This document shows positions 2,223 through 51,959 of a stretch of 64,000 nucleotides of DNA, in pieces. The position numbers and the translations under genes were made by a program. The stretch comes from an uncultured bacterium (GTDB lineage Bacteria > Zixibacteria > MSB-5A5 > UBA10806), in NCBI GenBank assembly GCA_965602185.1, contig CBFCYP010000001.1, positions 1,413-65,412 on the forward strand, read 5' to 3'. The stretch's first letter is position 1. Every line of letters starts with the position of its first letter. The notes under the pieces are model-generated. The model was given only the letters and a program-made list of their open reading frames with translations, had not been told where the DNA came from and did no database searches.

Positions 2223-2579
2223 CGGTTCTCCTTTTTTATTCGAATATTTACGAAATCCTAAAGAAAAGACAGCTTTACATTATCGTCTGTCCAAAATCAG
2301 CTATCTCGATTTTAGTTTTCTTAATAGCCGATTGTAAGGTAAACCCTCTGCTCCCTTCGAGGAATGTCCAAAACGACAAAACTCAAACCAATTCGAAGTT
2401 AACCATTAGTATTATATCCTGATTTTGCCAAAAATCAAGTATCAACGGAAAAAAATACCCTGCAAATTGAAAATATTGCCCGGGCAAGCCAAACCGGAAT
2501 ATTAATACTGAGTCCTTCGGTAATGTATAACTGCAATGTTAATAAAGTGTTATGAGTTCAAATCAGCCGTGAAAGGTTT

Positions 2580-9105: not shown

Positions 9106-10095
9106 ATGGCGCAGGTATTATCACAGGAAGAGATCGACGCTCTATTGACAAATGTCGATTCCGAGGACGCGTTAACCGCTCCGCCGGAGATGTCGGCGAC
9201 GTCCGGTCGCAGCGAGGGCGAACGGAAAGCGGTATTGTATGATTTCAAACACCCGAACAGGGTATCCAAAGATCAACTCAGATCGCTGGAGTCTCTTCAT
9301 GACAACTTCGCCAATCAGTTCGGCTCGCAGCTTTCCGGTTTTACGCGGTCGGTAGTCGATGTCGATCTGATATCGGTGGATCAGATAACCTACTCTGAAT
9401 TTATTATGTCCCTCGCCACTCCGTCATGTACTTACATGTTCGTCCTGGATCCTATCGATGGCGCCGGAATAGTGGATTTCAATCCTTCCATTGCTTTTTC
9501 ATTCGTGGACAGGATGTTCGGCGGAAAGGGAAAAGCCCTGAATACCGAGCGCGAACTGACCGGTATCGAGAAATCGATAATGTCAAAAATTATAGCCAGA
9601 TCTTTTCAGGCTCTGGGCAAGGCCTGGGAACATGTGGAGAAGCTGGAGTTCAGACAATCGGGCTTCGAGAGCAATCCGCAGTTCATTCAAATCGTCCCTC
9701 CCGGCGAAACGGTAGTCGTTGTATCTATGCAAATAAAAATGCTGTCGTCATCGGGATTGGTGACGCTTTGCTATCCGTATCTGACGCTGGAGCCGATAAT
9801 GGAAAAACTATCCACACAACATTGGATCGAAGCCAGAAAAAAGGGCGACGACAGCGGACGGTATGAATCCAACGCCAGGAGTCTCTCGGCGGTAAGTACC
9901 GATCTAAGAGCTTTACTCGGAGGCACGAGGGTTACGGTAAAAGATTTAATGAATCTCAAGCCCGGTGACGTTATCAGACTTGATGAAAGCGATAATGATT
10001 ATGCGGTTGTTTATATCAGCGACAGGAGGAAATTTTTCGCAATACCGGGCCGCGTGGGGAAAATGAAAGCTATAAAAATAAAGGATAAAATTTAA
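9106..10095 (+). CDS. fliM: Flagellar motor switch protein FliM
   Basis: N-terminal CheY-binding motif LSQEEIDALL, FliM middle domain and a C-terminal SpoA-like region. Confidence 0.9.
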   Translation: MAQVLSQEEIDALLTNVDSEDALTAPPEMSATSGRSEGERKAVLYDFKHPNRVSKDQLRSLESLHDNFANQFGSQLSGFTRSVVDVDLISVDQITYSEFIMSLATPSCTYMFVLDPIDGAGIVDFNPSIAFSFVDRMFGGKGKALNTERELTGIEKSIMSKIIARSFQALGKAWEHVEKLEFRQSGFESNPQFIQIVPPGETVVVVSMQIKMLSSSGLVTLCYPYLTLEPIMEKLSTQHWIEARKKGDDSGRYESNARSLSAVSTDLRALLGGTRVTVKDLMNLKPGDVIRLDESDNDYAVVYISDRRKFFAIPGRVGKMKAIKIKDKI

Positions 10096-19811: not shown

Positions 19812-20198
19812 ATGAATTACAACATCCTGATTTTGGTGGCAGCATCTTTAAATTTTATGGTGGGATTGGCGCTCCTGTATTTCCTCGTAAGGAATTTCGG
19901 AGTTGTCAGAAAACTGTCAAATGAAAAGCATAAACATCTCGATCGTTACTTTGACGATTTGCTGGAGAGGATTCAACGAATCGAAAGAAATCATCCCGTT
20001 CAGGCCGTCGCGAATTTAGAATCATACATTCCGGAAATGAGCGGTTCCGGAGCCAATCGAATAAAATCCGTCGTGGAAAAACTTCGCAACGGGGGCAATC
20101 CGGATGAAGTACGGAGAGAACACGGTTATTCCGGATCGGAAATGGGTTTGATACTGGCCGCCGCGGGGTTGACCGGGAACGGGCCGAACGCCATATAA
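19812..20198 (+). CDS. Single-pass membrane protein with a C-terminal HTH-like segment, hypothetical
   Basis: N-terminal TM helix (ILILVAASLNFMVGLALLYFLV), a coiled-coil middle and C-terminal LRNGGNPDEVRREHGYSGSEMGLILAAAGL. It may resemble DUF2802-type flagellar-cluster proteins; this is unverified. Confidence 0.45.
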   Translation: MNYNILILVAASLNFMVGLALLYFLVRNFGVVRKLSNEKHKHLDRYFDDLLERIQRIERNHPVQAVANLESYIPEMSGSGANRIKSVVEKLRNGGNPDEVRREHGYSGSEMGLILAAAGLTGNGPNAI

Positions 20199-20202
20199 TC
20201 CC

Positions 20203-20229
20203 TTTAGGAAATCAAGGCGATGCCGATAG
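20203..20229 (+). promoter_or_regulatory. Possible sigma28-type promoter (strong -10, weak -35) for the zinc-ribbon/ycgR-like operon
   Basis: GCCGATAG at 20222-20229 matches the GCCGATAA -10 in 7 of 8 positions. The -35 (TTTA) is poor. Confidence 0.3.
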
Positions 20230-20262
20230 TTTTAAAGGGAACAATTACCGGAGAGGTTTAAT

Positions 20263-21447
20263 ATGGCCAATGATCAAACACCCTACTTCGCTACCAAAAT
20301 TGAATGTCCCGTTTGCGGCTACCTAAATTCGTTTGAAATTCTAAAGCAGGGCTCCTACACGGAATCCGGTAAGGATACCGATTTCGCTCCCACGGGCAGA
20401 GTCTGGAATAATCCCGCCTTTCAGAGATATAATCCCCTTCTGTATTTCACGGGCACCTGCGGGAATTGTTACTATACCCGTGAGATAAACTCCTCGTTCA
20501 GAAAATGGCAGAAGGATAACGGTTTTCGCACTTATCGGCTTCCGAATCAAAAAAAGGGACATTTGAAGGAAATTGCCGGAGAAGGTAGCGTAATAAAAGC
20601 TCTCGCAACAAATATCGATTATAAGAATTTTCCGAATGAATCAGCCATCATCAAACTGCTTATAGCCATTTACGACGAATTGCTTCTGGAGCGGCCAACA
20701 TCTCTTGACGTGGCCAGATATTACCTCCGTATCGCCTGGATATACCGCGAGATGTCAAGCGGGAAATGCGAAAATATTTCTCCGGCTCAAATAACCGTGA
20801 GCAATATTCAGCGTGAAATTAACCGGCTGAAAAAATATATCGATGGTTTGGGTGATCACATCGAACCTCTCTTGAATATGGTAAATGATGATCTGAAGCC
20901 GATGCTTTCTCAGGATCAATTTCCGGGCGGATTAACGTTCCGAATGGGAGAGGGGATCGATAGTATCTTTGGGTCATGGAGAGAGATCCAGGAGAATATC
21001 AACCGGATCGAATCAGAATTTAATATGGGGAAAGAAGAAATCTGCGATCATGAGAACGAGGATAAAGTCCAGACCGACTTCGGGGGATATCCCGCTTTTA
21101 ACGATTATCTGAGTAAAATTCGGGAAAGCTGGCTGGGCGTTCCGTTAACCGAATTCGGGTCTTTAGACTTCGCGCTGCAATACTATCTCAAGGCATACCA
21201 GAACAGCAAAGAAATCAAGCCGGGGCTCCAGCAGCTCCAGGCCTCATATGTGATCGCGGAGCTTTCAAGACGCGTGGGAAACAATAACCAGGCCATGGAA
21301 TATTTTAGGAATACCTCCAAACAAGCTCATGAGATGATGAATCGGAATAGAAACGATAAGACCGTTTTTGCAAACGCGCAAAAAATCTTCGAAATGTCGC
21401 TGGAACAGGCCCGACTTCTAAAAAAACCAGAGAAGGTGAAAAAATGA
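20263..21447 (+). CDS. Zinc-ribbon (CPVCG...CGNC) plus helical-repeat protein, DUF2225-like, hypothetical
   Basis: N-terminal four-Cys motif (ECPVCGY...TGTCGNCYY) and a C-terminal TPR-like helical region. Its stop overlaps the downstream PilZ gene start (ATGA). Confidence 0.55.
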   Translation: MANDQTPYFATKIECPVCGYLNSFEILKQGSYTESGKDTDFAPTGRVWNNPAFQRYNPLLYFTGTCGNCYYTREINSSFRKWQKDNGFRTYRLPNQKKGHLKEIAGEGSVIKALATNIDYKNFPNESAIIKLLIAIYDELLLERPTSLDVARYYLRIAWIYREMSSGKCENISPAQITVSNIQREINRLKKYIDGLGDHIEPLLNMVNDDLKPMLSQDQFPGGLTFRMGEGIDSIFGSWREIQENINRIESEFNMGKEEICDHENEDKVQTDFGGYPAFNDYLSKIRESWLGVPLTEFGSLDFALQYYLKAYQNSKEIKPGLQQLQASYVIAELSRRVGNNNQAMEYFRNTSKQAHEMMNRNRNDKTVFANAQKIFEMSLEQARLLKKPEKVKK

Positions 21448-22187
21448 AAAACCGCATCGGCGCAAAAAGCGACAATCTCGCCCTCTGGGACAGGTTGATC
21501 CTGACTCTAAAAAAAGACGACGGAAGATCTGAATTTATCAGCAGGGTGGAGAATAAAAAACGGAATTCATACGTTTTTGAAATGCCCGTCAGGCAAAGCG
21601 GTAAATGCAATTTACAAAAAGGAGATGTTGTGGAAGTCCGTTATAACAGGCGCGACGCCGCCTATACGTTCAAAGCGAGCATAAAGGACCTCTTTGTCGA
21701 CGACGTCGGATCGATCGAGGTGAAACGGGAAGGCGAAACCAGAAGGGAGCAGCGCCGAAAATATGTGAGGCTGAATATATCGGAGAGTATAAATTTCAGG
21801 ATATTGGAATCTCCCGAAAATGACGACGTCGGCTTGAGTCCTGAGTTCCAGGGATTGCTTTTAAACATTTCCGCCGGCGGTTTTCTTTTCGAGACGGAAA
21901 AAAAAGTACCGTCGGATTCCCTGCTCATAATTAAATTCAAGCTTAAGTATCATTATTCATTAGAAAACATACTCGCCATAGTCAAACGGTCGGAACAAAC
22001 CGGCGACGGTTTATTTCTGGTGGGATCGGAGTTTATTACCAAAGCCAATAAGGGCGATTTCGGCCTGGAGAGACTGGACGAATATCTTCCGCCCGGAACC
22101 GGAACATTTGATGAAAATCTCCAGAGGCTTATAGTCCAGTTCATTTACAATCAACAGGTGGAAATGCGTAAAGAGGGCAAGCTTTAG
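21444..22187 (+). CDS. ycgR: YcgR-like c-di-GMP-binding PilZ-domain protein (candidate flagellar brake)
   Basis: 247 aa. An N-terminal PilZN-like domain is followed by PilZ motifs RRKYVR (RxxxR) and NISAGG (D/NxSxGG). Located in the flagellar regulon. Confidence 0.75.
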   Translation: MKNRIGAKSDNLALWDRLILTLKKDDGRSEFISRVENKKRNSYVFEMPVRQSGKCNLQKGDVVEVRYNRRDAAYTFKASIKDLFVDDVGSIEVKREGETRREQRRKYVRLNISESINFRILESPENDDVGLSPEFQGLLLNISAGGFLFETEKKVPSDSLLIIKFKLKYHYSLENILAIVKRSEQTGDGLFLVGSEFITKANKGDFGLERLDEYLPPGTGTFDENLQRLIVQFIYNQQVEMRKEGKL

Positions 22188-22188
22188 C

Positions 22189-22746
22189 ATGAAATCAATT
22201 TACAGGTTGTTTTCATCTGGAATATTCTCAGTTTATATTTTTTGTTCAACTGTTTCAGGAACATTGATTCCATCCACGAATATAGCGGTGATTCTGGAAA
22301 CAGAGAAATTCGCATATCCCGATAAGGGCCAGTTGATATTTTCTTCTCTGGAAAAGGAAATGCGTCTTAAGGGATTCATGGGAAGACTCAGAGTTATAGA
22401 AAGAGAGGATCGGCCGGCCGTATCCGGCGAGACCGTGGTTAAAATCACTATCACGAAAAACCGATGGCTGACAAGAAAACTCCTATCCATACCGTATATG
22501 CTGAATCGATACAGAAGAGAATACATAATAGAATCGTTTGTCGAGATCCCGGAAGGAAAAAACGGGATGTCCATAATAAGAATCACGGCGGCGAGTTCCG
22601 CTCGCGCAATCACTCAATATGTTAACAATGATAAATACGATCCCGCTCTTTTTCCAAATCAAATGGAACAACTGGAAATGAAAGAAAACGCCAGAAAGAT
22701 GCTGGCCAAAAAACTCGCGAATCATCTTTTCAATCAACTGAGGTAG
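22189..22746 (+). CDS. Hypothetical exported protein or lipoprotein
   Basis: 185-aa ORF with a signal-peptide-like N-terminus (MKSIYRLFSSGIFSVYIFCSTVSG). No recognisable domain. Confidence 0.45.
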   Translation: MKSIYRLFSSGIFSVYIFCSTVSGTLIPSTNIAVILETEKFAYPDKGQLIFSSLEKEMRLKGFMGRLRVIEREDRPAVSGETVVKITITKNRWLTRKLLSIPYMLNRYRREYIIESFVEIPEGKNGMSIIRITAASSARAITQYVNNDKYDPALFPNQMEQLEMKENARKMLAKKLANHLFNQLR

Positions 22747-22871
22747 CGCTGTTTAACGACGGAAAAGTAACGGAGTTCTTAAGCCGTAATGAAAATAATA
22801 CTCAAGATAACATATCATCTGTGGAGATCCGCTTTTTCGGGCGGACATTTTAAACCTGAATAGGAGTAAAT

Positions 22872-23720
22872 ATGGAGGAAGCAGTACCTCGAGATTCCGA
22901 CAAAATAGACTATTTCGGTATGGCCGGCGAATTGAAGGCTTTATGCGAAATATCCAAGGCCGTTCAGGAGGCAGATATTTCAGAGGAATCTTTTGAAGAG
23001 ATCTTAAAAGCTGTTGGGAGAATCATCGACTTCAGATCGGGATCGCTTTTTCTGTTTTCCAAGGAAACCGGAAAGCTCGATGAAATATGCACTATCGGAC
23101 ACCGTGTAGATTTAATTAATTTTGTTGAGTTTGATATGGGTATGGGAATATCCGCCTGGGTAGCCCAAAAAAGAAGACCTATATTATTGAATAATCTGAG
23201 AAAGTCAAAAGGCGGAGTTCACATCAGGTCTTTCCTATCGGTAGCTATCGTCTATGGTAACGAAATTATAGGAGTTATTAATCTCGCGCACGACGAACCC
23301 AATGCGTTCACCCGACGGGATTCCAATATTCTCGGAATAGTATCAACCCTCTTCGCGTTGTTATCGGAACGAATCTATCATAAAAAATTCGAGACCTGCG
23401 CCCGCGTGGAGATCGATTCCCTGAACGAACAGTTGAATAAAACCAGGATTGAAATGTCAAAGATGGAAAGTATTCGCGGAACCGGCGATCTTTCGGAATC
23501 CCTGAGCAAGCAGATAGCAAATCCCCTGGCAATAATCGCGGGCAACGCCCAGTTTCTGTTGATGACTGTGAAAAATTCATCCAGTTCGGTTATCAGAAGG
23601 CTTAAGGCTATCGATAAAGAGGCATCGAATATCGCCGCGCTGGCAAGCCGGTGCCTGTCCGGGTCTTATACTGAAAAAGAGGTCTCCGTCGAATCAAAAG
23701 AAGAATATCGGAGAATCTGA
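22872..23720 (+). CDS. GAF-domain protein with a His-less DHp (HisKA-like) domain and no ATPase domain (pseudo-histidine-kinase)
   Basis: A GAF-like region is followed by SKQIANPLAIIAGNAQFLL. This aligns with the HEIRNPLTVIGGHSN H-box of the adjacent kinase, with the phospho-His replaced by Lys/Gln. The protein ends right after the DHp region. Confidence 0.6.
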   Translation: MEEAVPRDSDKIDYFGMAGELKALCEISKAVQEADISEESFEEILKAVGRIIDFRSGSLFLFSKETGKLDEICTIGHRVDLINFVEFDMGMGISAWVAQKRRPILLNNLRKSKGGVHIRSFLSVAIVYGNEIIGVINLAHDEPNAFTRRDSNILGIVSTLFALLSERIYHKKFETCARVEIDSLNEQLNKTRIEMSKMESIRGTGDLSESLSKQIANPLAIIAGNAQFLLMTVKNSSSSVIRRLKAIDKEASNIAALASRCLSGSYTEKEVSVESKEEYRRI

Positions 23721-23736
23721 TACTTTTAAAATAGCT

Positions 23737-25476
23737 TTGAGATATAAGATGAACTTGACGGGTGAGTTAATACGGGATTCTTCGGAAACGGTCAGGCCGG
23801 CCGCTTTCTTTACGCTGGATAAGAATTATTTTATCGGAAATATGGCCCAATACGGTTCCCTGTTTTGTGAATTCAATTGTATAAACGACCTTTTAAAAAA
23901 CAAAAGTTTCCTGCCTCTCGATAATCCCCATGTGAGGAACGCAATTAATAATGCGTTTAACGAAATGCCCTCGCAGGTGCGTTTCGAACATACAATTGGC
24001 GATAGGACATTTCATTTTGATTTATACTGCTTCCCGGAACTGGGGCAGGACAACTCGTCCATCGGCTGTTTTCTCGCCGATAGATGCCGCGACGAGGAAA
24101 CGGCAATATCGTTGCAGACGAAAGTCGACAGGCTCGATATTATCAATCAGGCCGTGAGAGCGTTTGCCGAGACAACCAATCTTAATGAAATTTTACGAAT
24201 AATTCTACTTGCGGTAACCTCCGGTCCCGGGCTCGGTTTTAACCGGGGATTCATTTTTTTATCCGATGAGTCCCGTACGTATCTTCACGGGTGTCTTGCT
24301 ACCGGCCCTTCCTCGCCTGCTGAAGCGGGCGAAATCTGGAAAAGTTTGTCTGAAAAATCCCTTTCCTTGGCCGAAATATTGCGTTTTTACAGAAGCGGGG
24401 AAAGCCCTTTTGACACCTATGTTAACCAGCTGGTAACGTCCTTGAAAATACCTCTTACCAAAAGCTCCAGTTTTTTGAAACGGTCTTATGAGGAAAGACG
24501 AGCTCTGGTTATCGATTCTGTTTCAAATCTAAATGAAGACGAAATATCCTTGAAGAAAAAATTGGAGGCCGAAAGTCTGGCCGTTGCCCCCTTGGTTTCA
24601 CGTGATTCGTGGCTGGGAGTTATCATAGCGGATAACCTTATCACTAATAAGCCGATCTCATCCTCGGATTTGCAGCTTCTGGAAATCTTCGCGCGCTATG
24701 CCTCGGACGCCATCGATAATACCCATCTATACGGCAGGCTCCAGAGAAAGATCGCGAAGCTTAAAGAGGCCAATGAAGAAATTATCAGGACCAGGGAGAA
24801 TCTAATCCGTTCGGAGAAATTAACGGGTATATCGAAAATGGCTCTGGAAGTGGCTCATGAGATTCGCAATCCTTTGACGGTGATCGGCGGTCATTCCAAC
24901 GCGAGGCTCAGAAAAATGAAGGATGATCCTGAAAACGAGAGAATTTATGGCATAATTTCCAAACAAACTGCCCGAATAGAAAACACTCTAAACCGTTTCT
25001 CCAGCATTATTTCCCTGAGCGAGAAAGAAGACGGCGAATTTAATATCGGCGACCTGGTTATAGAAACCCTCAGGACAATGACATCGATTAAATCGGAAAA
25101 GATGCCTATCGTTGACGTCGATGATAAGGCTAAGGACGGAAAGATATTTATCGATCAGGGTCTCTTTCACAAAGCCCTGATGATAATTATTAGAGAAGCG
25201 TCATTAATCGCGGGAGGATTGTCGAATCTCAGGTTGGAAATTAAAAAACGGCATAATTCCGCCATTATATTGATCGGCAGCGACGGACTATACCAAAAAT
25301 TCGCCCATAGTTTTTTTTATGCCATGCGTATCGGGCAGGATGAGTTGAAATCGCAGGAGATGTCGGTCGCCCTCGAGATAATAAAACATTACGGCGGGGA
25401 CCTGGGTATAGGCTCCCCGGAAATATCGAAGGGATGGCTGATCGTGGAATTCCCATTAATCAAGGAGGAAAAGTGA
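23737..25476 (+). CDS. Cytoplasmic GAF-domain sensor histidine kinase (HisKA H-box present; catalytic-domain motifs divergent)
   Basis: No TM segment. GAF region, then HisKA box EVAHEIRNPLTVIGGHS. The C-terminal ATPase-like region has a G2-like GGDLGIG, but the N-box Asn is not evident (ALMIIIREASL). Confidence 0.7.
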   Translation: MRYKMNLTGELIRDSSETVRPAAFFTLDKNYFIGNMAQYGSLFCEFNCINDLLKNKSFLPLDNPHVRNAINNAFNEMPSQVRFEHTIGDRTFHFDLYCFPELGQDNSSIGCFLADRCRDEETAISLQTKVDRLDIINQAVRAFAETTNLNEILRIILLAVTSGPGLGFNRGFIFLSDESRTYLHGCLATGPSSPAEAGEIWKSLSEKSLSLAEILRFYRSGESPFDTYVNQLVTSLKIPLTKSSSFLKRSYEERRALVIDSVSNLNEDEISLKKKLEAESLAVAPLVSRDSWLGVIIADNLITNKPISSSDLQLLEIFARYASDAIDNTHLYGRLQRKIAKLKEANEEIIRTRENLIRSEKLTGISKMALEVAHEIRNPLTVIGGHSNARLRKMKDDPENERIYGIISKQTARIENTLNRFSSIISLSEKEDGEFNIGDLVIETLRTMTSIKSEKMPIVDVDDKAKDGKIFIDQGLFHKALMIIIREASLIAGGLSNLRLEIKKRHNSAIILIGSDGLYQKFAHSFFYAMRIGQDELKSQEMSVALEIIKHYGGDLGIGSPEISKGWLIVEFPLIKEEK

Positions 25477-25829
25477 AAAACATCTTAATTGTGGACGACG
25501 AGGAAGATATTCGTAGCCTGTATGAAAGCGAATTCGAGATTGAAGGGTATAAGATATATTCGGTTTCATCCGGATCGGAAGCCCTTGACTTTGTCGAAAA
25601 TAATTTCAGTCTCGATCTGGTGATTCTCGATATTAAAATGGATGATATGGACGGACTTGAGGTGCTGGAAAATATCAGGACCAGAACTAACAAGGTACCG
25701 GTAATTTTGAACTCGGCTTACTCCACTTATAAAAACAACTTCACGTCCTGGCTGGCCGACGCCTATCTTGTTAAGTCATCAAATCTATCCGAATTAAAAG
25801 ATAAGGTTCGGGAGCTTCTGGCAGTTTGA
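25473..25829 (+). CDS. Single-domain response regulator receiver (CheY-like)
   Basis: DD pair (IVDDEED), phospho-acceptor Asp (LVILDIKMDDMDG), and Ser/Thr and Lys positions. GTG start at 25473 with an AAGGAGGA RBS. The ORF-track 25434 start overlaps the kinase by 43 nt. Confidence 0.8.
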   Translation: MKNILIVDDEEDIRSLYESEFEIEGYKIYSVSSGSEALDFVENNFSLDLVILDIKMDDMDGLEVLENIRTRTNKVPVILNSAYSTYKNNFTSWLADAYLVKSSNLSELKDKVRELLAV

Positions 25830-26194
25830 ATACGGATAAAAAGACAGATCAAAAAGGGATCCTGGATTATTTAGAGGCGGTATCAGGCGAGATTCAGCTT
25901 CTCGCTCTAAATATAGCGGTTGCGGCGGCCAAGTTGGCGCACAACAACAAGATCGGAGTCGAGGTAAATCAAAATCTCTCCAATCTGGTAAATCGGGCCA
26001 CCCAGGCGGTCAAACAGATGAATCAGGTAATAGACGCCGCCAAGACAGAAAAAAGCCCCCGGGACGCATTTAACGATGCCAAAGATGAACCGGTCGATGG
26101 CGGACTCACCGAAAATATCGAATCCGCTATGAGCGATATAATCAGGGATTCGGAAAGAATAGTCCGGCTTCTCGCCAATGTTAAAAAGAGGTAA
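25826..26194 (+). CDS. Small all-helical protein with a single His in an AHxxKxG context: candidate Hpt phosphotransfer protein (MCP-tip-like alternative)
   Basis: 122 aa. The only His lies in LLALNIAVAAAKLAHNNKIG. The gene is wedged between receiver genes with a 4-nt overlap upstream and a direct abutment downstream. Confidence 0.45.
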   Translation: MNTDKKTDQKGILDYLEAVSGEIQLLALNIAVAAAKLAHNNKIGVEVNQNLSNLVNRATQAVKQMNQVIDAAKTEKSPRDAFNDAKDEPVDGGLTENIESAMSDIIRDSERIVRLLANVKKR

Positions 26195-26565
26195 TGCCGA
26201 TGCAGCCAGGAACTGTATTGCTGGTTGAAGACTCCGTTGAGGTAAGAGACGTTGTCGCTGAGATATTAACCCGGGATGGATATTCGGTTTCGATAACCAG
26301 TGACGGCCTCAGTGCATGGAAAATGATAAGTTCACAATACTTCGATCTCGTAATTTCCGATATGGGACTTCCGGGCATGGATGGGAAAGAACTTTTAAGA
26401 AATATGAGGAAAAACTCCATTAAAACACCGGTTTTGCTTACATCAGGAGTTAGAATAAAAGAGAAAATCGGTTGCGGCACCGTGTCGGATTGTCGTCTGA
26501 TTTATAAGCCATTCGAAATAAACGAAATAAAAAATGCCATTTTTGACCTTTTAAAGAAAAAATAG
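26194..26565 (+). CDS. Single-domain response regulator receiver
   Basis: LLVEDSVEVRD, phospho-acceptor LVISDMGLPGMDG, T in LLTSGV and K in YKPF. Confidence 0.85.
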   Translation: MPMQPGTVLLVEDSVEVRDVVAEILTRDGYSVSITSDGLSAWKMISSQYFDLVISDMGLPGMDGKELLRNMRKNSIKTPVLLTSGVRIKEKIGCGTVSDCRLIYKPFEINEIKNAIFDLLKKK

Positions 26566-26663
26566 TTTGACGAAAAAGTAATTTCTATTTGATTTAGAAC
26601 GATAATAATAAAGAAGATATAAGTCCCTGCTAATATAATTTTTCAAATAAGGAGCGCGGCGCA

Positions 26664-27086
26664 ATGAAAGAATACGTGAATATTCTTATCGTGGAAGACG
26701 AAGCCATGATGCGGAATCTTTTATTGAAAATATTGGAATCGGAAGGTTATAAGATTACTCTTGCGTCTTCGGCGGCTGAGGCTCTCGATAAACTGGAATG
26801 TGAAAAATACGACCTGCTGTTATCCGACGTTAAAATGCCGGGAATGAACGGATTTGAATTGCTTGAGAAAGTGAAAAGCCAGTGGAATGATATGGCGGTT
26901 ATCGTAATGACGGGATATGGAGACGCCTACACTATCAAAGAGGCTCTGATGAAGGGAGCCGATGAATATCTGTCAAAGCCCTTTAAAAGCCATGAGGTTT
27001 CACTTATAGTCGAAAGGGCTTACTGGCGATTACTTTCGGCGAGAAATTCGGCTGAAAAATCAAAGCAACCGATAACGACACCGTAA
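26664..27086 (+). CDS. Single-domain response regulator receiver
   Basis: ILIVEDEAMMRN, phospho-acceptor LLLSDVKMPGMNG, T in VMTGYGD and K in SKPF. Confidence 0.85.
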   Translation: MKEYVNILIVEDEAMMRNLLLKILESEGYKITLASSAAEALDKLECEKYDLLLSDVKMPGMNGFELLEKVKSQWNDMAVIVMTGYGDAYTIKEALMKGADEYLSKPFKSHEVSLIVERAYWRLLSARNSAEKSKQPITTP

Positions 27087-27118: not shown

Positions 27119-27145
27119 ACGGCCTTCAAGGGCCGTTTTATTTAA
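27119..27145 (+). terminator. Rho-independent terminator after the receiver gene cluster
   Basis: ACGGCC-ttcaag-GGCCGT hairpin followed by TTTTATTT. Confidence 0.6.
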
Positions 27146-27320
27146 AAGAAATTTATTCACCTGTAAGCAGAAAGATTTTCCCATATTAATTTTGAGTTGT
27201 CGGGGCATAAAATATCCCCGATGATTTTCATGAATTCCGGGATAAAATAATCCCATATCGCACAAAGACTTGGGCTGGCCCGAGGGGCGCCGCCGGGAAT
27301 ACTTACGGATATTCCGTTTA

Positions 27321-27335
27321 GGGCATATCAATTGC
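27321..27335 (+). promoter_or_regulatory. Candidate sigma54 -24/-12 promoter for the flgFGAHIJ-flgNK-csrA-flgL-fliW operon
   Basis: GGGCAT-atcaa-TTGCTTAA, with GG and GC 10 nt apart. The extended motif matches the element at 2580-2594. The flgF ATG is 40 nt downstream, behind a GTGAGGA RBS. Confidence 0.45.
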
Positions 27336-27374
27336 TTAATAAAATGAGGGTTTTGGTATTGATGTGAGGATTTT

Positions 27375-34401: not shown

Positions 34402-34598
34402 TGAATGCGGAAATTGAAAAATTTTATATATCTGAAAATTCGTATCCGAATAAAAAAGGGGATTACTGGCAGCATAAGTGCGGGTTATTTCATTGGCACA
34501 TTTCCGGGAGTAACGTGAGCCTGAGTTGCCAGGATCCGGATTTGGAGAAAATAACCTGGCCGAATATTGACAGGAAAGAGATACCCGGAGGACCGTAA
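34401..34598 (+). CDS. Hypothetical 65-aa Cys/His/Trp-rich protein translationally coupled between csrA and flgL
   Basis: TAATG overlaps at both ends (csrA stop/start, then stop/flgL start). Without it the csrA-flgL spacer would be 196 nt. No homologue recognised. Confidence 0.35.
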   Translation: MNAEIEKFYISENSYPNKKGDYWQHKCGLFHWHISGSNVSLSCQDPDLEKITWPNIDRKEIPGGP

Positions 34599-36514
34599 TG
34601 AGAATAACCTCAAATATGATAATGAACACGGTGACTCGAAATCTGGCGCTATCGCAATCGCGGTTCTTAAGGATTCAGACCATGGCCAGTTCGGGCAGGA
34701 GAATAAACAGGCCGTCCGACGATCCTATAGGAATAACCAAGGATCTCGGATTCAGATCCGATTTATCGGAGATATCCCAGTTCAGGAAAAATATCAATCA
34801 GGCTCTTTCCTGGTTTAATTTTTCCGACCAGGCCATGGGCAATATGAATGAGCTGATTTCCAGGGCCAAGGAACTGGCGGTTCAGTTTGCCAATGACACT
34901 TATGACCAGAACGCCCGGGCGGCCGGCGCCACCAATATCAGGGACGTTTTCGAACAGATAATCGAAGCCGCAAACACTCAATTCGAGGGTAATTATATAT
35001 TCTCCGGCACGAGAACCGACGTTTCTCCCTTTATGGTGCTTGCGATGGGAGTCGTATACCGGGGAGATTTTGAGCAGATTTCCCTTGAAACGGAATCATC
35101 CTCATATCTCGGAATAAATTCCATAGGTGCAGAATTTCTCACCGTGGCAAGTCGTACTTTGGGCGATGGGTATGATTTAAATCCCGGTATTCAACCGAAT
35201 CTCTGGCTTGATTATCTTCATGGGGGAAACGGTGTCGATCTGGGTGCGGGTCTTTTCAATGTCCGAACATTAAACGGTGAATATGCCATAGACGTATCGG
35301 CGGCAAGGAATATTCAGGATGTTCTCGACGCGTTAAACGGCGCCGGCATCCCGAATTTTAACGCCAGCATAAGCCTGACCGGAAACAGCATCGCTCTTGA
35401 GGATACATCAAACCATTTAATAAACGTCAACACCCCTCTTTCCATGCTCAACGGTGGATTGGGAGTCGATCAAACACCGGGCCTTATAAGGTTCGGCACC
35501 GGCGGCGGAGTGAGCGTGAACGTCGATATTTCCGGATCCGTCACTATCGGTGATGTTATAAACGCTATAAATACGCAACTGCCGGCGGGCGGGATAAACA
35601 ATGTTACAGCTTCGCTTCATCCGGATAAAAACGTGCTGGTTTTAAACGACAACAACGCTGCGCCACTCAATATCATGATCTCGGAGGGTTCGCCCGGAGG
35701 CCAGACAGCATCCGACCTTGGAATATTGGGCGAAATCGGAACCGTGATGGAGGGGGAAGACCTCGAACCGACTCATATACAGGTGGCTGAAAACGCGCCG
35801 GACGAGAATACTGCCAAATATCTGGGGCTTCTTGGCGAATCACAATACGAACAATATGTTGGAGAAGATCTTAATCCCGAACTGGCGTATTTCACCCTGC
35901 TTTCCTCTCTGAGATCCGGAATGGGATTTCCTCTGGGGAAAATCAGGATAGTCAACGGCGATCTGGTGAAGGACGTCGACTTAACGGCTCTGGGAAATGA
36001 TCCCAACGCCACCATAATGGACGTCATAAATCTGATCAACTCATCGGGAATAGAAGTTGAGGCCAGAATAAATGATCAGCATACCGGAATTCAGATTATT
36101 TCCAAAGTTGAAGATAGGTCGCTGATGGTAATCGAGGCGGACGGTGGCCAGACCGCGAAGGATCTCGGAATATTCGGATCGCCCGATATTCTGGGCAATC
36201 TGATGGTGTTAGAGAAGGCATTAGAAAACAACGATGTCGACGAGATAGGATTATGTCTGGAAACCTTCGATACCGCGCTGAATAAGGTGTCGATTGCACG
36301 AGCGGAGGTCGGTGCCCGGACAAACCGGGCCGACATGGCTTCATATCGTCAGTTAACTTTCGAATTACAGATTACCGAGCAACTGTCCAATATAGAAGAT
36401 GCCGATATTGCCAAGGTCATAACGGATCTGGCGTCAGCGGAAGCGGCATATCAGGCCGCTCTCGCGTCCGCAGCCAGATTGATTCAACCGTCTTTAATCA
36501 ATTTTCTTAGATAG
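34598..36514 (+). CDS. flgL: Flagellar hook-associated protein 3 FlgL, enlarged (638 aa)
   Basis: Flagellin-like N-terminus MRITSNMIMNTVTRNLALSQSRFLRIQTMASSGRRINRPSDDPIG and conserved C-terminal helices, with a large central insertion. Confidence 0.9.
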   Translation: MRITSNMIMNTVTRNLALSQSRFLRIQTMASSGRRINRPSDDPIGITKDLGFRSDLSEISQFRKNINQALSWFNFSDQAMGNMNELISRAKELAVQFANDTYDQNARAAGATNIRDVFEQIIEAANTQFEGNYIFSGTRTDVSPFMVLAMGVVYRGDFEQISLETESSSYLGINSIGAEFLTVASRTLGDGYDLNPGIQPNLWLDYLHGGNGVDLGAGLFNVRTLNGEYAIDVSAARNIQDVLDALNGAGIPNFNASISLTGNSIALEDTSNHLINVNTPLSMLNGGLGVDQTPGLIRFGTGGGVSVNVDISGSVTIGDVINAINTQLPAGGINNVTASLHPDKNVLVLNDNNAAPLNIMISEGSPGGQTASDLGILGEIGTVMEGEDLEPTHIQVAENAPDENTAKYLGLLGESQYEQYVGEDLNPELAYFTLLSSLRSGMGFPLGKIRIVNGDLVKDVDLTALGNDPNATIMDVINLINSSGIEVEARINDQHTGIQIISKVEDRSLMVIEADGGQTAKDLGIFGSPDILGNLMVLEKALENNDVDEIGLCLETFDTALNKVSIARAEVGARTNRADMASYRQLTFELQITEQLSNIEDADIAKVITDLASAEAAYQAALASAARLIQPSLINFLR

Positions 36515-37115: not shown

Positions 37116-38828
37116 ATGCCGGAAGCAGTCGAAACAAAAGAAAAAAAACTCATTTCAAGGGACGAGCTGGCGAGACTCTTAGAAAATGAAGATTATTCGG
37201 AGGCCGAGGACGCGATCCATGCGCTTCTGGAACAATCCCCGGAAGATATTGAATTGTTGAACTCGCTGGGATCGATATACGCCCGGCGGGCGGATTATTT
37301 TAACGCCGAAAGTACGTTTCGGAACGTAATCGGCATTGATCCTGAATGCGGGGATGCTTACTACAACCTGGGCCTTGTTCACAGCAAACAGTCCCGCAGG
37401 ACCGAAGCCGTGGAAGATTTCCTTAAAGCGGTGGAGATTAATCCTCAAGACGCCGCGGCCCACAACGATCTCGGCGTGCTTTATCATTACCAGGGGAAAA
37501 CGCATCTGGCCAAAGGTCATTTCATAAAAGCCCTGGAAGGCAATATCCTTTATAAAAGGGCCTTGATGAACCTCTTCGAGGTCTGCTTCGATGCTGATTC
37601 TTATTCTGAAGGATTGGCTTGGGTCGAGAAGTTTCTAAACGCCTCCACCGGGAGCAACAATTCAGACGATACGAATCATGATATAAATCTCGTTTCGAAA
37701 GAAAACTCTATAATAGAAAAAGCGAATTCGGTTCAAATCGAAGTAAAAACGAAATCCGAACAAAAGCTGTCCCCGGGCGCGCTTAAACTCACCAAAAGAT
37801 CAAACTCGAAAGCGGATGATATTTTCTTAAAACATGTCCCCGAAGAACTGCGCGAGAAGAAAACGGGGAAGAATATAGCCATAATCGCCGATTTCAATAT
37901 CGCCGGGCAGCTGTCTTTGCTGTTCAGGATGATTAACAGGTATACGATTCACAAGGCCCGCATGGTAATAATCCAGGACGATTATCTTACTTATGACAGG
38001 GATCTGATCCTCTCCCGGGACGGCGAAAAAGGCCATAAAGAAGCATTGGATATTGTCGAACATGCGGACTTCTATCATATGGGAAGATTTCCCAAGCCTG
38101 TTGAAAGCGTAAACTGGGAAGAACACCTGAAACCGGATAATTCTCTTATACAATATTACGGCTCCGAGATAAGAACCAACTCGGTTCAATTGTACAGGTG
38201 GCACACTCAGAACAGAATTCTCGGGCTTTCGTGCTGGGATTATACCATGCTGGAAAACGCGCCGTTTTTCTACCATACCAATATCATGTGTGATTTATCG
38301 AGAATAAAACAATGCTCCGAGCCTACCGATACAATCAGGATCTGCCACCCGCCCACCAATCGCCAGTTTAAAAAAACCGATCTCTTTCTCTCCGTCGTCG
38401 AGAAGCTCAAAAAGAAAAATTATCCCTTTGAGGTGGAGTTGATAGAACGTAAATCAAACGAGGAATGCCTGGATATAAAAAGCCGCTGTCACATGACCTA
38501 TGATCAGATCTCCGTCGGTATTTACGGTTTATCCGCCATCGAGTCCATGGCCGCGGGCCACGCCGTCCTGTGCGGGATTTCGAACTTCGCCTCCAGCTAT
38601 CATCCGGATAATCCCGTCGTTTACGTCACCGAAGAGAATCTATATGACAGGCTGGAATACCTCCTCAGAAACAAAGAGGAGATTACCCGTATCGGAAACG
38701 CGGGCAAGATCTGGGCCAGAACTCATCATGATCCCATGAAACTCATAAGGCAATATGTCTGGATATACGACCTGGTGATGAACGGACACAGGATTGTGGA
38801 TGACCGCGATATGTTTCTTCTAACATAG
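37116..38828 (+). CDS. TPR-repeat protein with a C-terminal GT-B-like glycosyltransferase domain
   Basis: N-terminal TPR repeats (AYYNLGLVHSKQSRRTEAVEDFLKAVEINPQDAAAHNDLGVLY). The C-terminal region carries a GT1/GT4-like motif (GLSAIESMAAGHAVLCG). Confidence 0.5.
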   Translation: MPEAVETKEKKLISRDELARLLENEDYSEAEDAIHALLEQSPEDIELLNSLGSIYARRADYFNAESTFRNVIGIDPECGDAYYNLGLVHSKQSRRTEAVEDFLKAVEINPQDAAAHNDLGVLYHYQGKTHLAKGHFIKALEGNILYKRALMNLFEVCFDADSYSEGLAWVEKFLNASTGSNNSDDTNHDINLVSKENSIIEKANSVQIEVKTKSEQKLSPGALKLTKRSNSKADDIFLKHVPEELREKKTGKNIAIIADFNIAGQLSLLFRMINRYTIHKARMVIIQDDYLTYDRDLILSRDGEKGHKEALDIVEHADFYHMGRFPKPVESVNWEEHLKPDNSLIQYYGSEIRTNSVQLYRWHTQNRILGLSCWDYTMLENAPFFYHTNIMCDLSRIKQCSEPTDTIRICHPPTNRQFKKTDLFLSVVEKLKKKNYPFEVELIERKSNEECLDIKSRCHMTYDQISVGIYGLSAIESMAAGHAVLCGISNFASSYHPDNPVVYVTEENLYDRLEYLLRNKEEITRIGNAGKIWARTHHDPMKLIRQYVWIYDLVMNGHRIVDDRDMFLLT

Positions 38829-38838
38829 GGAGAATGAC

Positions 38839-39831
38839 GTGATAAAAGGTAAAAAGATATTTCTATCCGGGGGCGCCGGCTTTATAGGTTCCGCTCTCAT
38901 CGCCCGGCTGATCGATCATAATGAGATTGTAATATACGACACCTACGCGCGCCACAGCCTGAACGGCAGAAGATTCGAAAAACATCCCAATCTCACCTCC
39001 TGCCGCGGCGACATTCTCGATTTCAAAAACATTAAGAAACATATTGACGGCACTAATATTGTCATACATCTCGCGGCCATCGCCGGTATAGATACCGTAA
39101 TAAAATCCCCCGTAAATACCATGCGGGTAAACATGATCGGCACCTCCAATATGCTGGAGGCGGCTTCGGGACTTACATCGCTTGAGCGATTCGTCGATTT
39201 TTCCACGTCGGAGGTTTTCGGATCGTATGCTTATAGATCCGAAGAGGGAGACTCGACGTCGCTGGGCGCGGTGGGAAACGCCCGCTGGACCTACGCCGTC
39301 TCGAAACTCGCCGGGGAGCACCTTTCCTACAGTTATTACAAAGAAAAGAATATCCCCACGACGACCATACGGCCATTTAATATTTATGGCCCCGGACAGG
39401 TCGGCGAAGGCGCCGTACATCATTTTATTACCAGGGCGTTGAAGGGCGAAGATCTTATAATCAGGGGCAACGGCGATCAAATCAGGTCATGGTGTTATAT
39501 TGACGATATCGTGGACGCCATCCTGGCGGTTCTTGAGAATGACGGAGCCGTCGGAGAGTGCTTCAATATAGGAAATCCCCGCGGCACGGTTACCATTTAT
39601 GGTTTGGCGCTGGCCGCTATCAGGGTGACCTATTCCAAATCTAAAATCGTCTTTGTTGACAAGGATGTAGTCGACGTCGAGCTGAGGATTCCCAATATAG
39701 ATAAGGCCAGGTCCATCCTCGGTTTTCAGCCCGGGGTGGATCTCGAGGAGGGTTTAAAATTAACAGCCGATTGGTATTATGACAGAATTCATTCGAATAC
39801 CGCTTTCGAAGCCAGCCTTGCTGGATGCTGA
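38839..39831 (+). CDS. NAD-dependent sugar epimerase/dehydratase (extended SDR)
   Basis: Rossmann motif GGAGFIGSALIARL and catalytic YAVSK (YxxxK). Confidence 0.85.
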   Translation: MIKGKKIFLSGGAGFIGSALIARLIDHNEIVIYDTYARHSLNGRRFEKHPNLTSCRGDILDFKNIKKHIDGTNIVIHLAAIAGIDTVIKSPVNTMRVNMIGTSNMLEAASGLTSLERFVDFSTSEVFGSYAYRSEEGDSTSLGAVGNARWTYAVSKLAGEHLSYSYYKEKNIPTTTIRPFNIYGPGQVGEGAVHHFITRALKGEDLIIRGNGDQIRSWCYIDDIVDAILAVLENDGAVGECFNIGNPRGTVTIYGLALAAIRVTYSKSKIVFVDKDVVDVELRIPNIDKARSILGFQPGVDLEEGLKLTADWYYDRIHSNTAFEASLAGC

Positions 39832-40930
39832 TATTGAGTCAGCGGCAAAGAGTATGAAATCGGGCCGGCTGGTCTGCGGCCGGATGGTTGAAACATTCGA
39901 ACGGCAACTGGCCACATATCTAAAGGTTCGCTATGCGGTTTGCGTTTCATCCGGTACCGCCGCCCTGCATCTCGGTTTGCTCGCCCTGGGTATCGGGCCG
40001 GGCGATGACGTTATCGTGCCGGCTTTCAGTTACCCCGCCAGCGCCAATGCCGTGGAGATCTTAGGCGCCAGACCGGTTTTTATCGATTCCGAGCCGAACG
40101 GCTTTAATATCGACATAAGCAGAATTGAAAACAGCATCACCTCCCGCACAATGGCCTTGATGATTGTTCATAATTTTGGATGGCCGGTTGAGATAAATAG
40201 AATTCGCGCCCTGTCCGCCAAATATGATATCCCCGTAATCGAGGACGCCGCCTGCGCGCTGGGTTCTTCTATAGCGGGCGTCAGGTGCGGAAACCTCGGA
40301 AGATTGGCCGTTTTCAGCTTTCACCCCAGAAAGATTCTGACCACCGGCGAGGGGGGAGCGGTGGTTACCGACGATTTCGAACTTGCCGAAAAGATAAAAA
40401 GGCTGCGTAATCATGGTCAGGATTTCTCCCATGGCGTCGATTTTGTTATGCCGGGATTTAATTATAGAATGACGGAATTTCAGGCCGCTATGGGAGTTTC
40501 GCAGATGAAGCGTTATAATACAACCCTGCGGGAGCGGATAACGGCCGCCGATTTTTACAATAAAAATCTAGCGGATATGGATTGTATACGTCCCTGTTTG
40601 CCTCAAGCGAACCGCAAACTGAATTATCAGACATATATTGCCTTTATTCCGGGCGGTAATAGAGATGAAATTATTGATCATTTGAGAGAATATGATATCG
40701 AGGCCGGCATCGGAACCTATTCCATACCCCATACAGCCTATTATTCGAATAAATACGGCATTGAAGAATCCCGTTACCCGGAATCGTTGAGCGCGTTCGA
40801 AAACATCATGAGCTTGCCATTGTATAACGGCATCACCATGGATGAACAAAACCGTGTAATTGAAATACTTAAAAAGTATAAAGCCGAAAAAAAAGGATCT
40901 CGGATTAAACAAACCGTGGAATCATCATGA
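39779..40930 (+). CDS. DegT/DnrJ/EryC1-family PLP-dependent sugar aminotransferase
   Basis: IPLSKPALLDADIESAAKSMKSGRLVCGRMVETFERQLATYL...SSGTAALHLGL and a typical fold length. Overlaps the upstream SDR gene by 52 nt. Confidence 0.8.
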   Translation: MTEFIRIPLSKPALLDADIESAAKSMKSGRLVCGRMVETFERQLATYLKVRYAVCVSSGTAALHLGLLALGIGPGDDVIVPAFSYPASANAVEILGARPVFIDSEPNGFNIDISRIENSITSRTMALMIVHNFGWPVEINRIRALSAKYDIPVIEDAACALGSSIAGVRCGNLGRLAVFSFHPRKILTTGEGGAVVTDDFELAEKIKRLRNHGQDFSHGVDFVMPGFNYRMTEFQAAMGVSQMKRYNTTLRERITAADFYNKNLADMDCIRPCLPQANRKLNYQTYIAFIPGGNRDEIIDHLREYDIEAGIGTYSIPHTAYYSNKYGIEESRYPESLSAFENIMSLPLYNGITMDEQNRVIEILKKYKAEKKGSRIKQTVESS

Positions 40931-40940
40931 AAGGGACATT

Positions 40941-41531
40941 ATGAATAACACCACCCGGTTTAATGAAATCGGTAAGAACACGCAACCGGCATCTACGGGA
41001 AAATTGTCGGATTTGCAAAAAATATTAAAACTGGCCGCTAACAGTTTCGGCAAAGAAAAATATTCATTGACTATTGATTATTGTAGAAAAGCGGTAAACG
41101 CTGTTGACGGAACCGATCAACATAAACTGGCTGCAGAAGCATATTATATCTGGTGTCTGTCATGCTTTAAAATGAATAAATATGAGGACGCCAGAAAGGT
41201 ATGTTATGAAGCGCGGCTGAAACTGGGCAATTACCTCGATCTGGTTTATTTTGAGATTTTAATAGCGGCCGTTAACGGAGAAATTGACAGGATTCCGAAA
41301 TTCGCAAAAAGCTATATAGAGATTTACGAAGCCGCCGGAGACAAATTCAATCCTTTAAAAGAGAAGACCCACGATAGAATCGGCGAAGTCATGTTGATGA
41401 GTGGTCAGGCTCTCGAACAGGTGCAGAAGAAATCAGAAGCTCTGGATATTTATAAAAAATATTTATCTAAATTCCCCGATGATGTCCCCATAAAAGGACG
41501 GGTCGAAGTTCTGGCAAATCAAATAAACTGA
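40941..41531 (+). CDS. Helical-repeat hypothetical protein, paralogous to the N-terminal module of the downstream TPR-GT2 protein
   Basis: ARLKLGNYLDLVYFEILIA aligns with ARHIFGNYLDACFLEFNIY in the next gene. The ATG at 40941 is preferred over 40860, which would overlap the aminotransferase by 70 nt. Confidence 0.45.
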   Translation: MNNTTRFNEIGKNTQPASTGKLSDLQKILKLAANSFGKEKYSLTIDYCRKAVNAVDGTDQHKLAAEAYYIWCLSCFKMNKYEDARKVCYEARLKLGNYLDLVYFEILIAAVNGEIDRIPKFAKSYIEIYEAAGDKFNPLKEKTHDRIGEVMLMSGQALEQVQKKSEALDIYKKYLSKFPDDVPIKGRVEVLANQIN

Positions 41532-41552
41532 TCATAAGGATAATTTAAGCAG

Positions 41553-46892: not shown

Positions 46893-46950
46893 GCCCGTAT
46901 TATCGTGAATAAAAAAGTGGTTCTTTGCCGGTAAATATGTCTCAATATGT

Positions 46951-46977
46951 TAAAAAAGAGCAGTTGTTTCCGATAAT
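46951..46977 (+). promoter_or_regulatory. Candidate sigma28 promoter for fliD-fliS-fliT-like
   Basis: TAAAAAAG-N10/11-(T)CCGATAAT against TAAAGTTT-N11-GCCGATAA. Confidence 0.45.
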
Positions 46978-51732: not shown

Positions 51733-51933
51733 AATCCGGTATAAATCCGAAAAATAGTCCATATAACGATTTTAGATGCGACAACTGCATTTTGAGATTT
51801 TTTCCTTGCCCGATTTTTTATGGAAAAGTATATTAACCCTTGATGACCGGTTTCGAATTCGGTTGTCATATGATGTGTGTGTTTTTGGAGACCGGCGAAA
51901 TATCGATCGGCCTCGAGTGGATTTAAGTAATAT

Positions 51934-51959
51934 TAAATTTGGACTTTTGTTGCCGATAA
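51934..51959 (+). promoter_or_regulatory. Near-consensus sigma28-type promoter immediately upstream of tRNA-Val
   Basis: TAAATTTG-N10-GCCGATAA, an 8 of 8 match to the -10 consensus. The -10 ends 8 nt before tRNA nucleotide 1. Confidence 0.4.

Follow-up and report, generated by a model that had tools for sequence, protein, structure and literature searches.

Gene content and genomic setting

The 64-kb stretch of DNA analysed here (referred to throughout as the window) comes from a Zixibacteria genome and consists of one long flagellar super-operon on the + strand. Embedded in it, at positions 22872-27086 and on the same strand, is a cassette of six genes (Table 1). These encode a GAF protein with a histidine-less dimerization and histidine phosphotransfer (DHp) domain, a 579-aa protein derived from a histidine kinase (HK), three stand-alone receivers (REC1, REC2 and REC3) and, between the first two receivers, a 122-aa protein that corresponds to the signalling tip of a methyl-accepting chemotaxis protein (MCP) and is termed the mini-MCP below. 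On the 5' side of the cassette, the flagellar genes run in the order FliK, FlgD, FlgE, FliL, FliM, FliN, FliO, FliP, FliR, FlhB, FlhA, FlhF and FliA, followed by genes for a 128-aa protein, a DUF2225 protein, a YcgR-like PilZ protein and a 185-aa protein. On the 3' side lie FlgF, FlgG, FlgA, FlgH, FlgI, FlgJ, FlgN and FlgK, in this order, and then flagellin, FliD, FliS and housekeeping genes.

An earlier note on this DNA had described a tightly packed, terminator-closed set of six genes that forms a cytoplasmic signalling unit in a flagellar operon, with no CheA, CheW or MCP and no DNA-binding or enhancer-binding protein (EBP) output. This description is borne out at each point. All six + strand open reading frames (ORFs) are present, and their gene order is syntenic among relatives, in more than 30 Zixibacteria loci. 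The close packing is directly legible in the junctions: the kinase and REC1 genes overlap at GTGA, with a strong Shine-Dalgarno sequence (AAGGAGGA) just before it, the REC1 and mini-MCP genes overlap by four nucleotides at TTGA, and the mini-MCP and REC2 genes overlap at TAATG. Because the GTGA overlap is preceded by AAGGAGGA, REC1 probably starts at GTG 25473, giving 118 aa as in its orthologs, rather than at ATG 25434. Likewise, the kinase-derived protein probably starts at ATG 23749, since an identical database protein has 575 aa; the ORF length of 579 aa is retained here as a name. The terminator-like hairpin and its T-run, found at 27119-27136, comprise a 7-bp stem (5 GC pairs), a 4-nt loop and then TTTTATTTAAA. 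In a sigma-70 promoter and terminator scan of the window, match counts were no higher than in shuffled sequences and only this hairpin was convincing. Among the scanned ORFs of at least 110 aa in the window, none encodes CheA, CheW, CheB, CheR, a full-length MCP, a DNA-binding protein or an EBP. An NCBIfam search assigned no specific family to any of the cassette proteins.

Table 1. Features of the signalling cassette and the evidence for their assignment (CA, catalytic and ATP-binding domain; AF2, AlphaFold2)
Feature	Position	Strand	Evidence
GAF + His-less DHp protein, 282 aa	22872..23720	+	Pfam, hhalign; paralog of the neighbouring kinase, without a CA domain
HK-derived PAS-like/GAF/DHp/CA-like protein, 579-aa ORF	23737..25476	+	Pfam, motif alignment, AF2 model
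REC1 stand-alone receiver, 118 aa	25473..25829	+	Pfam Response_reg; best solved match TrrA
Mini-MCP, 122 aa, three helices	25826..26194	+	Family profile against PDB; Pfam MCPsignal
REC2 stand-alone receiver, 123 aa	26194..26565	+	Pfam Response_reg
REC3 stand-alone receiver, 140 aa	26664..27086	+	Pfam Response_reg
Intrinsic-terminator-like hairpin and T-run, closing the cassette	27119..27146	+	Terminator scan

A free-standing chemoreceptor tip

The 122-aa protein represents an MCP hairpin tip encoded on its own; its ancestry is that of a receptor tip, and the sequence features of a histidine-containing phosphotransfer (Hpt) protein are lacking. Its sole Pfam match is MCPsignal (22.5 bits, E = 1e-4, below the cut-off of 34.6), and relatives score 33-35 bits with the same model (P0233, 35.0 bits). 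Searched against all PDB sequences, the family profile retrieves eleven MCP cytoplasmic chains, led by 2CH7 (3.9e-5) and including 6S18, 3G6B and 1QU7. MCP cytoplasmic domains are its only matches among natural solved proteins, and no Hpt, Spo0B or CheA-P1 chain is among the PDB matches even at E <= 1. The alignment of the invariant core, IQLLALNIAVAAA, to the MCP tip sequence LLALNAAIEAAR is free of gaps and puts H39, the only histidine of the protein, at the hairpin turn. The AF2 model agrees, with helices at 4-39, 45-74 and 92-121 and with H39 lying at the turn, where helix 1 ends. Hairpin arms are present only at 4-39 and 45-74, and the methylation (adaptation) helices are lacking.

The histidine itself is poorly conserved. 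Among 87 close relatives, position 39 is His in 64, Gln in 20 and Arg, Asn or Tyr in one each, and no column of their alignment exceeds 74% His; in four more distant subfamilies (a-d), this position is never a conserved His. The residue at +3 is Asp in 45 of the 87 and Lys in 24. Position 39 covaries with positions 48-49 (His with NQ in 59/87, Gln with HH in 20/87), which, in the alignment, looks like a packing contact at the hairpin turn. The earlier note had favoured an Hpt protein with an H-x-x-K motif. This identification fails because neither the His nor the Lys is conserved and no Hpt-type chain was matched at E <= 1. The alternative that it had also raised, a mimic of the MCP signalling tip, is favoured by the profile search, Pfam and gene context alike.

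The family comprises 90 close relatives, and approximately 290 proteins match a broader profile. The listed proteins are 105-131 aa long, every named member is from Zixibacteria, and the core LLALN(I/L)A is kept across all subfamilies. A catalytic motif of the CheZ/CheX type was also considered for this protein and rejected: the invariance of S20-x3-Q24 is limited to the close family, and other subfamilies have Lys or Arg in place of Q24.

A kinase-derived protein that keeps its histidine but not its ATP site

Pfam identifies GAF and HisKA domains in the 579-aa protein and no HATPase_c; PF02518 is found in 0 of approximately 90 orthologs. The best solved match is ThkA (3A0R_A, 5e-11), in an alignment that stops at the N-box (NLVQNA versus IIIREA). 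A motif alignment separates two states of the kinase. The class II relatives, which carry PF02518, have an N-box (NIFRNAIWAM), a G1 box (DTGFGI), an F-box (FDAFFTTK) and a G2 box (CGLGLT). In the window clade and in subfamilies a, b and c, the N-box Asn is missing, two residues are deleted at G1, and SQEMSVAL or an equivalent stretch stands in the place of G2; an F-box-like FAxxFY segment is still present in the 579-aa protein. The AF2 model (pLDDT 76) consists of a PAS-like domain (22-115), a GAF domain (149-299), DHp helices (309-426) and an alpha/beta domain (432-573), with a long signalling helix running into the two-helix DHp. The modelled alpha/beta domain is compact, and the CA fold has thus been kept without its ligand site. 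Foldseek neighbours of the model are sensor histidine kinases, together with the signalling-only relatives NifL and RetS.

The earlier view of this protein as a soluble GAF-HisKA kinase with divergent ATP motifs is thus correct for the GAF and HisKA domains and too generous for the rest, as the ATP-binding motifs are not divergent but absent. Judged by these motifs, the protein cannot bind ATP or autophosphorylate in the canonical manner, and because every ATP-binding motif is missing it is predicted to be unable to start a relay by autophosphorylation. At the sequence level, the loss of the N, G1 and G2 boxes alike therefore tells against any relay that begins with an autophosphorylating kinase, as the earlier note had proposed, and it corresponds to one of the outcomes that the note itself had named as refuting its reading.

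The phospho-acceptor site has fared differently from the ATP site. The H-box reads VAHEIRNPLT, and H374 and the HE..N pattern are invariant in 41 aligned kinase orthologs, down to 31% identity, and also in the sister subfamilies. We take the HE..N form to be the phosphatase/transferase motif of HisKA domains. The protein also combines the two structural marks by which HK-derived phosphotransferases have been defined, a DHp histidine and an ATP-blind CA-like domain (PMC5898713). If any relay exists, its phosphotransfer protein is more likely to be this HK-derived protein itself.

The 282-aa GAF-DHp partner

The first gene of the cassette encodes a relative of the kinase-derived protein. Pfam finds GAF_2 (9e-14) and a weak HisKA match (E = 4.6e-3), and hhalign against the kinase family gives a probability of 94.8% (E = 5e-8), with collinearity over the C-terminal half of GAF and both DHp helices. 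This alignment reproduces the pairing of SKQIANPLAII with AHEIRNPLTVI from which the protein had earlier been recognized as a His-less GAF-DHp paralog of its neighbour without a CA domain, a recognition that stands. The H-box position is Lys in the window and Gln, Arg, Glu or Asp in orthologs (Glu or Gln in class II), with NPLAIIAGNAQFL invariant. Because some lineages (L023-L026, L008 and L009) keep a canonical H-box His (NHEINNPL or VHQINNPL), the His-less state is lineage-specific. The variability of this residue among orthologs also implies that phosphotransfer is not the conserved role of the protein, which is instead likely to be an interaction at the level of the DHp domain.

Receivers and a possible motor output

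Three stand-alone receivers had been proposed, and all three hold up: Response_reg is matched by REC1 (3e-24), REC2 (1.4e-20) and REC3 (3e-31), and each keeps D/E12, D13, D57, S/T87 and K109. They differ in conservation and kinship. REC1 has D12, D13, D57, S87, Y106 and K109 invariant in 30/30 orthologs, and its best solved match is TrrA (3A0R_B, 2.9e-27, 98 bits), followed by Spo0F (73 bits). Because kinase and REC1 both match the same solved complex best, they can be regarded as a ThkA/TrrA-type couple. REC2 has E12, D13, D57, S87 and K109 intact in the window, with position 87 being Ala in 10/22 orthologs; no specific relative was found for it among solved structures, and it is not present in lineages with an intact kinase CA domain. 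REC3 (E12, D13, D57, T87, Y106, K109 and P110, with I95 and A103 kept) has the most CheY-like switch residues of the three. Among natural solved proteins, it matches Spo0F and FixJ best, and CheY chains reach 53-59 bits.

The flagellar motor encoded in the same operon offers a potential target. FliM starts with MAQVLSQEEIDALL, which we take to be the docking peptide that binds CheY~P, and a motor whose FliM begins in this way would be expected to accept a CheY-like receiver.

Variation of the cassette among relatives

In every locus that spans the region, the mini-MCP gene directly follows REC1, usually with a 1-4 nt overlap. The conserved Zixibacteria core is the kinase, REC1 and the mini-MCP, usually accompanied by the GAF-DHp partner, which is missing in one locus (L042). 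Around this core, the relatives fall into two kinds. In class II (8 loci, with one of the kinase orthologs at L007 5252-7099), the kinase CA domain is intact and the cassette ends after the mini-MCP, with no receiver beyond. Where a degenerate-CA cassette continues beyond the mini-MCP, one or two additional stand-alone receivers always follow, such that the loss of the ATP motifs coincides with the presence of extra receivers. About half of these cassettes also carry a receiver 5' of the GAF-DHp gene, and FapA, CheW or the methylesterase is added in some. One related locus, L012, lies on the complete Zixibacteria chromosome CP070742.1, and its cassette protein is 91% identical.

Two sister subfamilies place chemotaxis-type genes beside the tip. 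In subfamily b, for which the metagenome scan was made with a 4-sequence alignment, a CheW-domain gene (172 or approximately 280 aa) lies directly 3' of the mini-MCP in 6/6 loci. The CheW gene of L042 spans 9354-9872. In subfamily c, the same place is taken by a CheB-type methylesterase without a receiver domain. Both sister cassettes lie in the same flagellar context (FlhG, FliA, DUF2225 and PilZ), for which reason they are treated as variants of one system.

Smaller differences are seen at the two ends of the cassette. A receiver of 140-156 aa with a partly degenerate acceptor site (REC0) lies just 5' of the GAF-DHp gene in many relatives (L002 4622-5062; L003 4563-5033). The window clade has no REC0; a 125-nt spacer (22747-22871) with a small hairpin at approximately 22828-22846 is found instead. 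Directly after the last receiver, some relatives carry a FapA (DUF342) gene (L002 9398-10831; L009 8434-9876; L011 3669-4502; L045 11431-12885), which is not in the window.

Interpretation and alternatives

The explanation that best accommodates these observations, to which we assign a probability of about 0.5, is that the cassette is a flagellar-operon module, so far confined to Zixibacteria, in which an ATP-blind histidine hub links receivers, a receptor-tip adaptor and a FliM-directed output. The 579-aa protein would serve as a PAS/GAF-gated histidine phosphotransferase and/or phosphatase, comparable to PhyT, ChpT and Spo0B, that moves phosphoryl groups among the three receivers or removes them. 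Its 282-aa His-less paralog may tune it through DHp-level contacts. The mini-MCP could act as an adaptor or target through which the module is joined to REC1, to a CheW-type partner or to a chemosensory array. As the putative output, a CheY-like receiver, for which REC3 is the best candidate, would bind the N-terminal peptide of FliM.

Several points weigh against this explanation. Sequence cannot separate phosphotransferase, phosphatase and phosphorylation-independent roles of the 579-aa protein. The association of CA loss with extra receivers may go back to a single evolutionary event or to very few. A source of phosphoryl groups is not evident nearby, with no ATP-binding kinase or CheA in the window or within 10 kb of the related cassettes, and the cassette of this lineage has no CheW or other known tip partner. 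The alignment of the mini-MCP lacks the canonical C-arm motif GRGFAVVA, such that binding to CheW or CheA may have been lost. Finally, CheY is not the closest solved match of REC1, REC2 or REC3.

A broader proposal, which we consider possible and put forward tentatively, is that the cassette represents a CheA-free chemosensory pathway. A receptor tip would here be wired to a HisKA sensor kinase, or to its ATP-blind descendant, and to stand-alone receivers; sister lineages supplement these parts with CheW or a CheB-like methylesterase. The two-component sensor would stand in for the ligand-binding portion of the receptor, and the flagellar motor would be under the direct control of the pathway.

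In the relay of the earlier note, the 579-aa protein autophosphorylates and REC1 receives the phosphoryl group, which next moves to His39 of the 122-aa protein, acting as an Hpt, and finally to REC2 or REC3. This relay fits the order of the overlapping genes, with the 122-aa protein between two receivers, and the single histidine of the window's copy with Lys at +3. It is nevertheless essentially excluded. H39 is a histidine in only 64/87 close relatives and in none of subfamilies a-d as a conserved residue, the +3 position is mostly Asp, the profile search found eleven MCP chains and no Hpt-type chain, the modelled three-helix protein has H39 at a turn, and the kinase that should start the relay is devoid of ATP-binding motifs. 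Only slightly less improbable is that the 579-aa protein is still an active kinase with a non-canonical mode of ATP binding. Retention under selection of a CA-like fold and the F-box-like FAxxFY segment would agree with this; the Mg-binding Asn, the adenine contact of DxGxG and the lid glycines of G2 are missing, however, two residues are deleted at G1, and the loss of ATP motifs is stable across approximately 90 orthologs.

A stronger competitor, though still a rather unlikely one, holds that phosphorylation is not involved in the 579-aa protein at all. It and its 282-aa paralog would form a pseudo-kinase scaffold of the DivL, RetS or NifL kind, binding receivers or each other through their DHp domains and reporting GAF/PAS signals by protein-protein contacts, while the receivers are phosphorylated by unrelated kinases or acetyl phosphate. 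The degenerate CA domain, the dispensability of the partner's histidine in most lineages and the presence of RetS and NifL among the structural neighbours all agree with such a scaffold, and yet the invariance of H374 and HE..N across the 41 orthologs and the sister subfamilies is difficult to account for unless phospho-His or phosphatase chemistry takes place. For the mini-MCP, it is unlikely, somewhat more so than the scaffold, that the protein regulates receivers, either as a phosphatase of the CheZ/CheX kind or as a target to which REC1~P binds, rather than serving as a CheW or array adaptor, its MCP-tip ancestry being merely historical. Such a role would suit its constant place right after REC1, the lack of another obvious target for REC1 in the minimal class II cassette and the absence of CheW from the window. 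Against it, conservation across the superfamily leaves no Gln or Asn as a catalytic candidate other than N29, a structural residue of the MCP core; Q24 gives way to Lys or Arg in subfamilies a-c. The adjacency of CheW and CheB-type methylesterase genes in sister lineages also points to receptor-type interactions.

Other features of the window

The block between fliA and the cassette (19812-22746) is found in the same order in approximately 25 Zixibacteria loci. Its 128-aa and 185-aa proteins each have a hydrophobic N-terminus, the DUF2225 protein combines a Zn-ribbon with TPR, and the YcgR-like protein has a PilZN+PilZ architecture. Further upstream, an ORF at the place expected for FlhG/MinD (17868-18686) has no Pfam match at E < 0.01, and its orthologs have only weak matches to CbiA or AAA_31.

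A sigma-28 promoter scan of the window with 3 mismatches allowed was noisy (132 matches versus 87 expected). Weak sigma-28-like matches (TAAA-N15-GCCGATAA, with 1-3 mismatches) lie in intergenic positions at 20203-20229, 26579-26605, 46950-46976 and 51933-51959, where they precede DUF2225, REC3, fliD and thrS, respectively. Short inverted repeats occur in the spacer of approximately 230 nt between the terminator and flgF (27150-27374): one, GGGGcataaaatatCCCC, near 27203-27220 and the other, GGAATActtacggaTATTCC, near 27295-27314.

Two unusually large flagellin-family genes (34598-36514, 638 aa; 44583-46838, 751 aa) flank a region (37116-44360) in which a TPR-glycosyltransferase gene (935 aa) accompanies a sugar-modification block. 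The position of the sugar-modification block between the flagellin genes suggests that the flagellin is glycosylated. An HDOD/HD-domain protein is encoded at 50836-51732, after fliS and two unknown small genes, and an HDOD/HD gene also lies just 5' of thrS in L001. The first part of the window (1-2500) has a GC content of 0.54, above that of the rest, and few ORFs of at least 70 aa.

Comparison with known systems

The central feature of this locus is a free chemoreceptor tip of approximately 120 aa that is strictly co-inherited with a HisKA kinase/receiver pair in a flagellar operon. Should the tip couple a two-component sensor to the motor or to arrays, the MCP tip would qualify as a portable module that works outside the MCP-CheW-CheA paradigm. 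The relatives with intact and dead CA domains constitute a natural before-and-after pair for the change from a kinase to a phosphotransferase or pseudo-kinase and for the recruitment of receivers, and the cassette is a testable candidate for the control of flagellar rotation in an uncultured phylum. The literature on Zixibacteria chemotaxis, on tip-only or very short chemoreceptors and on the function of ThkA/TrrA yielded no description of such a module, and neither an MCP tip as a free protein nor its obligatory coupling to a HisKA kinase/receiver pair was found described. RBG-1, the founding genome of Zixibacteria, is that of a non-flagellated organism and hence offers no guidance here.

Compared with the MCP tips of Escherichia coli Tsr and Thermotoga maritima TM1143 (PDB 2CH7, 1QU7), the N-arm core of the 122-aa protein (LLALNIAVAAAK) aligns ungapped to LLALNAAIEAAR, and a hairpin turn and C-arm follow. 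It differs in its size, with arms of approximately 30-35 residues and no sensor, HAMP domain or methylation helices, and in its C-terminal portion, where GRGFAVVA is missing and a variable linker and third helix follow the hairpin. It also differs in its company, being paired with a HisKA-type kinase/receiver couple rather than with CheA, and with no CheW in the window.

The kinase-derived protein is most readily compared with HK-derived phosphotransferases. PhyT, which is HK-like and has a degenerated ATPase domain, has been shown experimentally to pass phosphate from a single-domain receiver to PhyR (PMC5898713), and a phosphotransferase role has been proposed for ChpT and Spo0B, which are cited alongside it (PMC5898713; PMC3433190). 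Shared with these systems are a DHp with a conserved histidine, a CA-like domain lacking ATP binding and co-encoded single-domain receivers (PMC5898713; PMC3433190). The 579-aa protein, for which phosphotransfer is a sequence-based prediction, adds PAS-like and GAF sensors and a His-less GAF-DHp paralog, and its context is flagellar rather than one of stress response, cell cycle or sporulation. RetS-GacS and DivL resemble the cassette in a different respect, as there too a kinase-like protein without catalytic capacity acts through DHp contacts, and RetS is a structural neighbour of the 579-aa model. Here, however, the partner is a short GAF-DHp protein without any CA domain, and the protein to be regulated is itself catalytically dead.

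In R. centenum, the Che3 pathway (CheA3/CheS3/CheY3) uses a second histidine kinase besides CheA, together with single-domain receivers, in a chemotaxis-like system with non-canonical phosphate flow (PMC3868531). Whereas Che3 of Rhodospirillum centenum includes CheA, the window cassette has no linked CheA and its receptor is reduced to a tip. Full-length MCPs are also part of Che3. The closest solved counterpart is the ThkA/TrrA couple of T. maritima (PDB 3A0R), which the C-terminal half of the kinase and REC1 each match best and which likewise consists of a cytoplasmic sensor kinase and an output-less receiver of approximately 116-118 aa. We know of no mini-MCP partner of ThkA/TrrA. The CA domain of ThkA is functional, as in the class II relatives, unlike that of the window kinase. 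The parts of the cassette thus all come from known families (MCP signalling domain, HisKA DHp, GAF and REC), and it is their wiring that is unfamiliar.

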